From a virus (Duplodnaviria > Heunggongvirae > Uroviricota > Caudoviricetes): a DNA stretch of 46,314 nucleotides. A model generated the notes under the pieces. That model was not told the DNA's origin. It saw nothing but the letters and a program-made list of their open reading frames with translations, and searched no databases. Position 1 is the first letter of the stretch. Each line of letters starts with the position of its first letter. Location of the stretch: IMG/VR virus record IMGVR_UViG_2909303794_000006, one strand, 5' to 3'. Both the position numbers and the translations under genes were made by a program. This document shows, in pieces, positions 2,108-2,919 of the stretch.

Positions 2108-2136
2108 CAAAAACCGGAGCCAGACTCCGGTTTTGT
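2108..2136. terminator. bidirectional rho-independent hairpin (ccggag-ccaga-ctccgg flanked by A4 and T4)
   Basis: 6-bp perfect stem with A-run upstream and T-run downstream, immediately left of IS1. Confidence 0.5.
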
Positions 2137-2142
2137 GAAGCT
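2134..2142. repeat. IS1 target-site duplication, left copy (tgtgaagct)
   Basis: identical 9-mer directly flanks both ends of IS1. Confidence 0.9.
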
Positions 2143-2197
2143 GGTGATGCTGCCAACTTACTGATTTAGTGTATGATGGTGTTTTTGAGGTGCTCCA

Positions 2198-2473
2198 GTG
2201 GCTTCTGTTTCTATCAGCTGTCCCTCCTGTTCAGCTACTGACGGGGTGGTGCGTAACGGCAAAAGCACCGCCGGACATCAGCGCTATCTCTGCTCTCACT
2301 GCCGTAAAACATGGCAACTGCAGTTCACTTACACCGCTTCTCAACCCGGTACGCACCAGAAAATCATTGATATGGCCATGAATGGCGTTGGATGCCGGGC
2401 AACAGCCCGCATTATGGGCGTTGGCCTCAACACGATTTTACGTCACTTAAAAAACTCAGGCCGCAGTCGGTAA
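2198..2473 (+). CDS. insA: IS1 InsA (GTG start)
   Basis: 91-aa ORF recognised as InsA. Confidence 0.9.
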
Positions 2474-2895
2474 CCTCGCGCATACAGCCGGGCAGTGACG
2501 TCATCGTCTGCGCGGAAATGGACGAACAGTGGGGCTATGTCGGGGCTAAATCGTGCCAGCGCTGGCTGTTTTACGCGTATGACAGGCTCCGGAAGACGGT
2601 TGTTGCGCACGTATTCGGTGAACGCACGATGGCGACGCTGGGGCGTCTTATGAGCCTGCTGTCACCCTTTGACGTGGTGATATGGATGACGGATGGCTGG
2701 CCGCTGTATGAATCCCGCCTGAAGGGAAAGCTGCACGTAATCAGCAAGCGATATACGCAGCGAATTGAGCGGCATAACCTGAATCTGAGGCAGCACCTGG
2801 CACGGCTGGGACGGAAGTCGCTGTCGTTCTCAAAATCGGTGGAGCTGCATGACAAAGTCATCGGGCATTATCTGAACATAAAACACTATCAATAA
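2392..2895 (+). CDS. insB: IS1 InsB reading frame (expressed as InsAB fusion by -1 frameshift at the A-run near 2445)
   Basis: 167-aa ORF recognised as InsB; ttaaaaaactc motif in the overlap. Confidence 0.9.
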
Positions 2896-2910
2896 GTTGG
2901 AGTCATTACC

Positions 2911-2919
2911 TGTGAAGCT
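2911..2919. repeat. IS1 target-site duplication, right copy (tgtgaagct)
   Basis: identical to 2134..2142. Confidence 0.9.

Follow-up and report, generated by a model that had tools for sequence, protein, structure and literature searches.

The exchangeable effector locus (EEL) has been set out and defined as a concept in earlier work, in which the presence of IS elements within EELs was also noted (PMC8112680). For IS1, a published account that cites Grindley 1978 gives a length of 768 bp, overlapping insA and insB genes, a −1 frameshift and duplications of 8 or 9 bp (PMC12428005). Here we describe a locus in which, very probably, one complete IS1A-type element has transposed into the 15-bp spacer between a fibre stop codon and a terminator-like hairpin of a lambda-like, effector-carrying prophage.

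Judged by its gene content, the window (the whole stretch of 46,314 nucleotides that was analysed) is nearly a whole lambda-like E. coli prophage, with the effector locus at its fibre end. Read along the minus strand, J (5329−8808), lom (4662−5261), a tail-fibre gene (3197−4510), a small fibre-C gene (2926−3195), IS1, the hairpin, nleG (1396−2034) and IS2 follow one another; Q, O and a cI-like repressor lie farther right, and a lambda-type integrase is found at the end opposite the effector locus. The T3SS effector gene lies directly downstream of the tail-fibre genes and at the end opposite int, which is the arrangement of an EEL. The 437-aa tail-fibre protein carries a fibre N-terminal domain (PF08400), collagen repeats (PF01391) and a fibre C domain (PF06820), and an exact-protein look-up returned no match on record for it. 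The last fibre gene is intact and encodes an 89-aa Phage_fiber_C protein (PF06820, E=1.9e-34) that is on record, residue for residue, in O157:H7 and other assemblies. The nleG gene, also intact, encodes a 212-aa T3SS effector of the NleG family (PF06416, E=3.2e-44), and the exact protein was present in 24 contigs that we read.

The EEL order J, lom, fibre, fibre C, hairpin and effector genes, including the hairpin at the border, is the same here as in the relatives. The window differs from them in two respects: IS1 stands within the border, and the cargo that follows nleG is broken off by IS2. Two further features of the fibre region were observed. Another terminator-like hairpin, a strong one (4529−4558, minus strand) with 13 pairs followed by TTTTTATT, separates lom from the tail-fibre gene, so that the fibre genes may form a transcription unit apart from J and lom, barring read-through. 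In addition, G+C content rises to 0.68−0.71 at 3400−3800, where the tail-fibre gene encodes its collagen-like Gly-X-Y repeats, and this high G+C accounts for long spurious open reading frames on the opposite strand (for example 2897−3820 and 3427−4287, plus strand).

IS1 occupies positions 2143−2910 on the plus strand. It is full-length, as the sequence-only reading had proposed in calling it a 768-bp IS1, and it agrees with K-12 IS1A at 765 of 768 nucleotides. The three substitutions relative to the K-12 copy (2554 C>T, 2586 T>G and 2628 T>G) translate into R55C and S65R in InsB' and one silent change. Read directly, the element starts with GGTGATGCTGCCAACTTACTGAT and ends with ATCAATAAGTTGGAGTCATTACC. 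Its terminal inverted repeats, IRL (2143−2165) and IRR (2888−2910), are imperfect, agreeing at 18 of 23 positions when GGTGATGCTGCCAACTTACTGAT is compared with GGTAATGACTCCAACTTATTGAT. Overlapping IRL and pointing inward to insA is a promoter-like site, CTGCCA-16-TATGAT (2150−2177, plus strand), which sits at the place of the IS1 promoter.

The coding content of the element follows the same pattern. The insA gene (2198−2473, plus strand) encodes a 91-aa protein with a Zn-ribbon and a helix-turn-helix (HTH) (PF03811, E=1.3e-21; PF12759, E=4.7e-31) that is identical to K-12 InsA. The insB' frame (2392−2895, plus strand) carries the DDE transposase domain (PF03400, DDE_Tnp_IS1, E=2.9e-77), and all three Pfam matches are well over their cut-offs. 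Between them lies the A6C motif AAAAAAC (2449−2455, plus strand), at which the frames are correctly placed for a predicted programmed −1 shift from insA to insB' that would yield a 232-aa InsAB'. IS1A and IS1E of E. coli K-12 are likewise 768 bp long, with the same terminal repeats, a 9-bp target duplication, the same A6C frameshift site, a 232-aa InsAB' and an identical InsA protein. What places the element in the IS1 family is its length, its ends, the insA and insB' domains, the A6C motif, the duplication, and the empty target in relatives. Copies that are 100% identical to it over all 768 bp occur in at least 12 other E. coli records, where they are annotated as 'IS1-like element IS1A family transposase'. 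By this comparison the element itself is already known, and only the insertion site is new. The frames and ends are intact, InsB' has R55C and S65R relative to K-12, and this copy is probably still active.

The element is bracketed by TGTGAAGCT at 2134−2142 and TGTGAAGCT at 2911−2919, both read directly, with the left copy doubling as the foot of the extended hairpin stem. Identical 9-mers on either side of IS1 had been claimed from the sequence, and their coordinates proved exact. Two given 9-mers are identical by chance with P = 4^-9 = 3.8e-6; within the whole window, identical 9-mers 777 bp apart occur at this one place only (0.17 expected), and the plus strand of the window holds no TGTGAAGCT besides the two copies that flank IS1. 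Registers 2134 and 2135 both match, so that the repeat is formally 10 bp, the tenth matching base being the G at 2143 and 2920. Since G is the canonical first base of IS1, and the K-12 IS1A annotation likewise gives 768 bp and these ends, we take the duplication as 9 bp, the parsimonious choice.

In a single transposition of this kind, the InsAB' transposase would have cut the target with a 9-bp stagger, gap repair would have left the 9-mer duplicated on both sides, and neither IS1 end would have recombined or been deleted since. Loss of the duplication has been described as a sign of recombination between IS elements or of an adjacent deletion (PMC11708052). A 9-bp duplication fits a resolved replicative cointegrate as well, and 'simple insertion' is here the name of an outcome rather than of a pathway.

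The empty target that related prophages lacking IS1 would be expected to hold was recovered: the window minus IS1 and one 9-mer matches it base for base. In ten assemblies whose fibre-C protein is identical, O157:H7 chromosomes among them, all ten loci have a single 9-mer, and the minus strand reads TAA-CCCGAC-AGCTTCACA-AAACCGGAG... (also written TAA CCCGAC AGCTTCACA AAACCGGAGTC...). FORC_042 and EC12 also carry the exact empty target, with one TGTGAAGCT each. Eleven fetched loci with the identical NleG protein (L001 and L003−L012, from ten distinct assemblies) have a single copy of a target with one mismatch, TGTGAAGTT, and in the relatives with this NleG the order and spacing of nleG, hairpin and fibre C are the same. 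These nearest empty sites belong to related, not isogenic, prophages.

The exact empty sites, with the same neighbours on both sides, bear out the earlier interpretation of a simple transposition with no later deletion or recombination at the ends. They also decide against the reading in which chance or a rearrangement made the two 9-mers alike, IS1 having come in with one of its flanks by IS1-mediated recombination or forming one end of a composite element that carried nleG in. IS1-mediated rearrangement is known at such loci, as a copy in strain 13E0780 (see below) lacks a duplication and joins nleA to the hairpin. The chance probability given above speaks against a fortuitous match, however, no second IS1 was found anywhere in the 46-kb window, and the empty sites refute the rearrangement; we regard this explanation as vanishingly improbable.

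The distribution of the site points to a single transposition as well. The sequences on either side of IS1 were joined through a single 9-mer, and the resulting 144-bp reconstructed junction was searched for in 5,426 complete E. coli genomes. This empty junction is uninterrupted in 692 of the 5,426, and the median number of matching places per genome, counting any match, is 9. Among the matches listed, the occupied left junction was found in 0 of the 5,426 genomes, and no two-piece hit joined both flanks across a 777-bp gap (IS1 plus duplication). The occupied left junction was likewise absent from GTDB representative genomes and from JGI metagenome contigs. A phage collection contained a relative of the nleG cargo (phage 2B8, 97.7%) but no IS1-occupied site. 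Only one record matched at 99% identity or more among the matches listed, and the best complete E. coli genome matches are mosaic, at 96−98% identity. Because hundreds of genomes have the empty junction and no match to the occupied junction was listed, the insertion appears simple and strain-specific, and we infer that it is recent or confined to this strain.

Two sets of candidate shared insertions were rejected on reading. The three-piece EC12 match, the sole multi-piece one listed that came near the expected size, shows about 778 bp of extra sequence between the flanks, which consists of a pseudogene fragment of fibre C and further short pieces of hypothetical pseudogenes; it is unrelated cargo and not IS1, and the exact empty target lies further along. 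Four partial matches, each to IS1 and one flank, are independent IS1 copies located elsewhere.

IS1 is also found in the EELs of other lambda-like EPEC/STEC prophages (13E0780, PK8241, Z1323HEC0010 and O121 WL1277), likewise in the cargo just past the tail-fibre genes. In PK8241 it lies within nleG, in Z1323HEC0010 within nleB, and in O121 WL1277 in the cargo; unlike the PK8241 and Z1323HEC0010 copies, which interrupt effector genes, the window copy interrupts no gene and keeps its duplication. The 13E0780 element (NZ_CP020106.1; positions 1501−2269 of the fetched locus L015) is a divergent IS1, about 92% identical, located 26 bp beyond the same hairpin, on the side of nleG. It has nleA as its neighbour and no target duplication (ctcaagtca against acatctgcc), and its flanks suggest that IS1 mediated a deletion or rearrangement at this module border.

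These copies, all within a few hundred bp of the same border, raise the question of an IS1 hotspot at which the hairpin or terminator, or bent DNA between fibre genes and cargo, draws the element in. The other IS1 copies all sit at different sequences with unrelated duplications, however, and among the matches listed IS1 is found here in none of the 5,426 complete genomes, though 692 of them have the uninterrupted junction. Hairpins are not known to be IS1 targets, and we consider a hotspot very unlikely.

The hairpin next to the insertion spans 2105−2137 on the minus strand, with a CCGGAG/CTCCGG core at 2114−2130 extended by A/T and CACA/TGTG pairs. As minus-strand RNA it reads CCGGAG-UCUGG-CUCCGG followed by UUUUUGUGUU, a U-rich tail, and so has the G+C-rich stem-loop and U-tract of an intrinsic terminator. 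The minus-strand sequence CACAAAACCGGAG-UCUGG-CUCCGGUUUUUGUG, taken within 56 nt of context, has a predicted folding energy of −23.1 kcal/mol (z = −4.6), a stability that 0 of 200 shuffled sequences reached. The plus-strand fold is almost as stable, and by this modelling the hairpin is symmetric enough that it could act in both directions. A simple consensus terminator scan did not list the 2105−2137 hairpin, probably because the A/T extended stem consumes the T-run. An Rfam scan returned nothing at the IS1/hairpin locus, and no tRNA genes were found in the window.

In hundreds of genomes the hairpin accompanies the fibre-C 3' end, and the DNA beyond it varies between prophages. Its fixed place at the end of fibre C, with variable DNA beyond, fits a terminator that closes the fibre module at the border of an exchangeable cargo. 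From its predicted fold and its conservation we infer that it is the terminator of the fibre, or late, operon. The sequence-only reading had IS1 separating the fibre operon from its terminator and from nleG; this holds as a physical separation of 777 bp, with the hairpin as the putative terminator.

Several side observations concern the hairpin and its surroundings. Its loop (at and around window position 2121) reads CCAGA here, CCGGA in nearly all relatives examined and CCGGC in O121 WL1277 (compared with the fetched loci L001−L029), and variation among the hairpin copies that were read is confined to the loop, plus the adjoining closing position in O121 WL1277. The exact NleG allele of the window is elsewhere paired with the TGTGAAGTT target and a fibre-C allele that has 2 aa differences, and the exact fibre-C allele is found elsewhere in O157:H7-type prophages with different cargo past the hairpin. 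Such combinations of alleles suggest mosaic exchange at or near the hairpin.

How close IS1 lies to the hairpin depends on where the hairpin is taken to end. Its G+C core stem ends at 2130 and its T-run at 2134, the position at which the duplication starts, and 6 of the 9 bases in the left duplication copy (2134−2137 and 2140−2141) are paired in the predicted extended stem. Measured from the first base of IS1 (2143), the distance is thus 12 bp to the core stem, 5 bp to the continuous extended stem and 1 nt to the outermost pair in the prediction. We could not reproduce the distance of '2 bp from a terminator' given earlier for the insertion, which is either wrong or dependent on definition, the duplicated 9-mer being itself the foot of the stem. 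Because the target was duplicated, the hairpin is wholly preserved on the nleG side. On the other side, the fibre-C stop codon (2926−2928) is separated from the right duplication copy by 6 bp and from the end of IS1 by 15 bp. In the minus-strand sense IS1 thus lies upstream of the hairpin, within a non-coding 15-bp spacer, and no coding sequence is broken.

Since no gene is broken and the left duplication copy rebuilds the foot of the hairpin, the insertion is likely to be selectively near-neutral, and it presumably persists for that reason. Its sole likely effect is that fibre transcripts would run through 777 nt of antisense, untranslated IS1 sequence on their way to the hairpin. Insertions of IS1 are classically polar whichever way they face, and by analogy the antisense IS1 could shorten or destabilise the fibre transcripts. 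Late transcription modified by Q would be expected to read through regardless.

An effect on nleG was weighed against near-neutrality. Between the nleG start codon and the left end of IS1 there are 109 bp, which include the hairpin, and the insertion might alter nleG regulation by relieving or changing H-NS silencing, as happens with IS1/IS5 insertions upstream of bgl, or by removing read-through from the fibre genes. G+C content falls from about 0.5 to 0.36−0.41 immediately left of the IS1 site, and a minus-strand scan showed no convincing sigma-70 promoter between the hairpin and nleG. Precedents also exist: the bgl operon is activated when an IS element inserts upstream of it (PMC9678765), and for IS5-family elements AT-rich prophage DNA bound by H-NS is a hotspot of transposition (PMC11335895). 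Against this, the strong hairpin remains intact between IS1 and nleG, and relatives carry nleG behind the same hairpin, which argues that the gene is probably transcribed on its own. Nor did a credible hybrid promoter emerge at IRL that would face outward and drive nleG, either on reading the sequence or in the scan, which reported none; TTGGCA lies 8 nt inside IRL and the flank offers no usable −10, and any outward transcript from IRL would meet the hairpin before nleG. Altered regulation of nleG is thus unlikely. Somewhat less likely again is a fuller version in which the AT-rich and presumably H-NS-bound nleG cargo would have captured IS1 at its border, with NleG expression changed (through bgl-like relief of silencing or lost fibre-gene read-through) or the 3' end of the fibre mRNA destabilised as a result. 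If it were true, the insertion would be a small regulatory mutation in a virulence locus, and not neutral.

The prophage contains three other IS elements, and the duplication is intact wherever both ends are visible. IS2 (1−1320, minus strand; InsC/InsD-type orfA and orfB, with IRL ending at 1320) runs off the window start, presumably about 11 bp short of its full 1331 bp, judging by the terminal sequence and length of IS2; its far end is outside the window. It lies 75 bp downstream of the nleG stop codon, and because the same 75 bp run on into other cargo in relatives (a 181-aa ORF, cif), IS2 here interrupts or truncates the effector locus. An IS21-family element of 1954 bp (29956−31909, plus strand; istA 30042−31064, istB 31061−31843) has terminal inverted repeats of 28 nt and is flanked by AAACC, a 5-bp duplication; its removal together with one AAACC restores a 143-aa minus-strand ORF between the Q and replication regions. 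The third, an IS3-family element of 1310 bp that is IS629-like by size and ends (38019−39328, plus strand; orfA 38073−38399, orfB 38399−39286), has 25-nt inverted repeats, a 3-bp duplication, TAT, and an Rfam ALIL frameshift pseudoknot at 38354−38470. A lambda cIII thermoregulator element lies at 37905−37963, and from its position about 55 bp after it the IS3-family element probably interrupts cIII.

The single transposition described here is a textbook event that disrupts no gene, has no evident consequence and involves no new mechanism, and in itself it matters little beyond annotation. The comparison with relatives pins the hairpin as the border between a conserved fibre module and exchangeable effector cargo. 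IS1 and the three other IS elements, with duplications wherever both ends are visible, show that the host of the prophage has recently active IS elements and that the prophage is probably defective. For the lineage that carries it, the insertion offers a clean marker, specific to the strain, with which isolates could be typed or IS1 activity dated.
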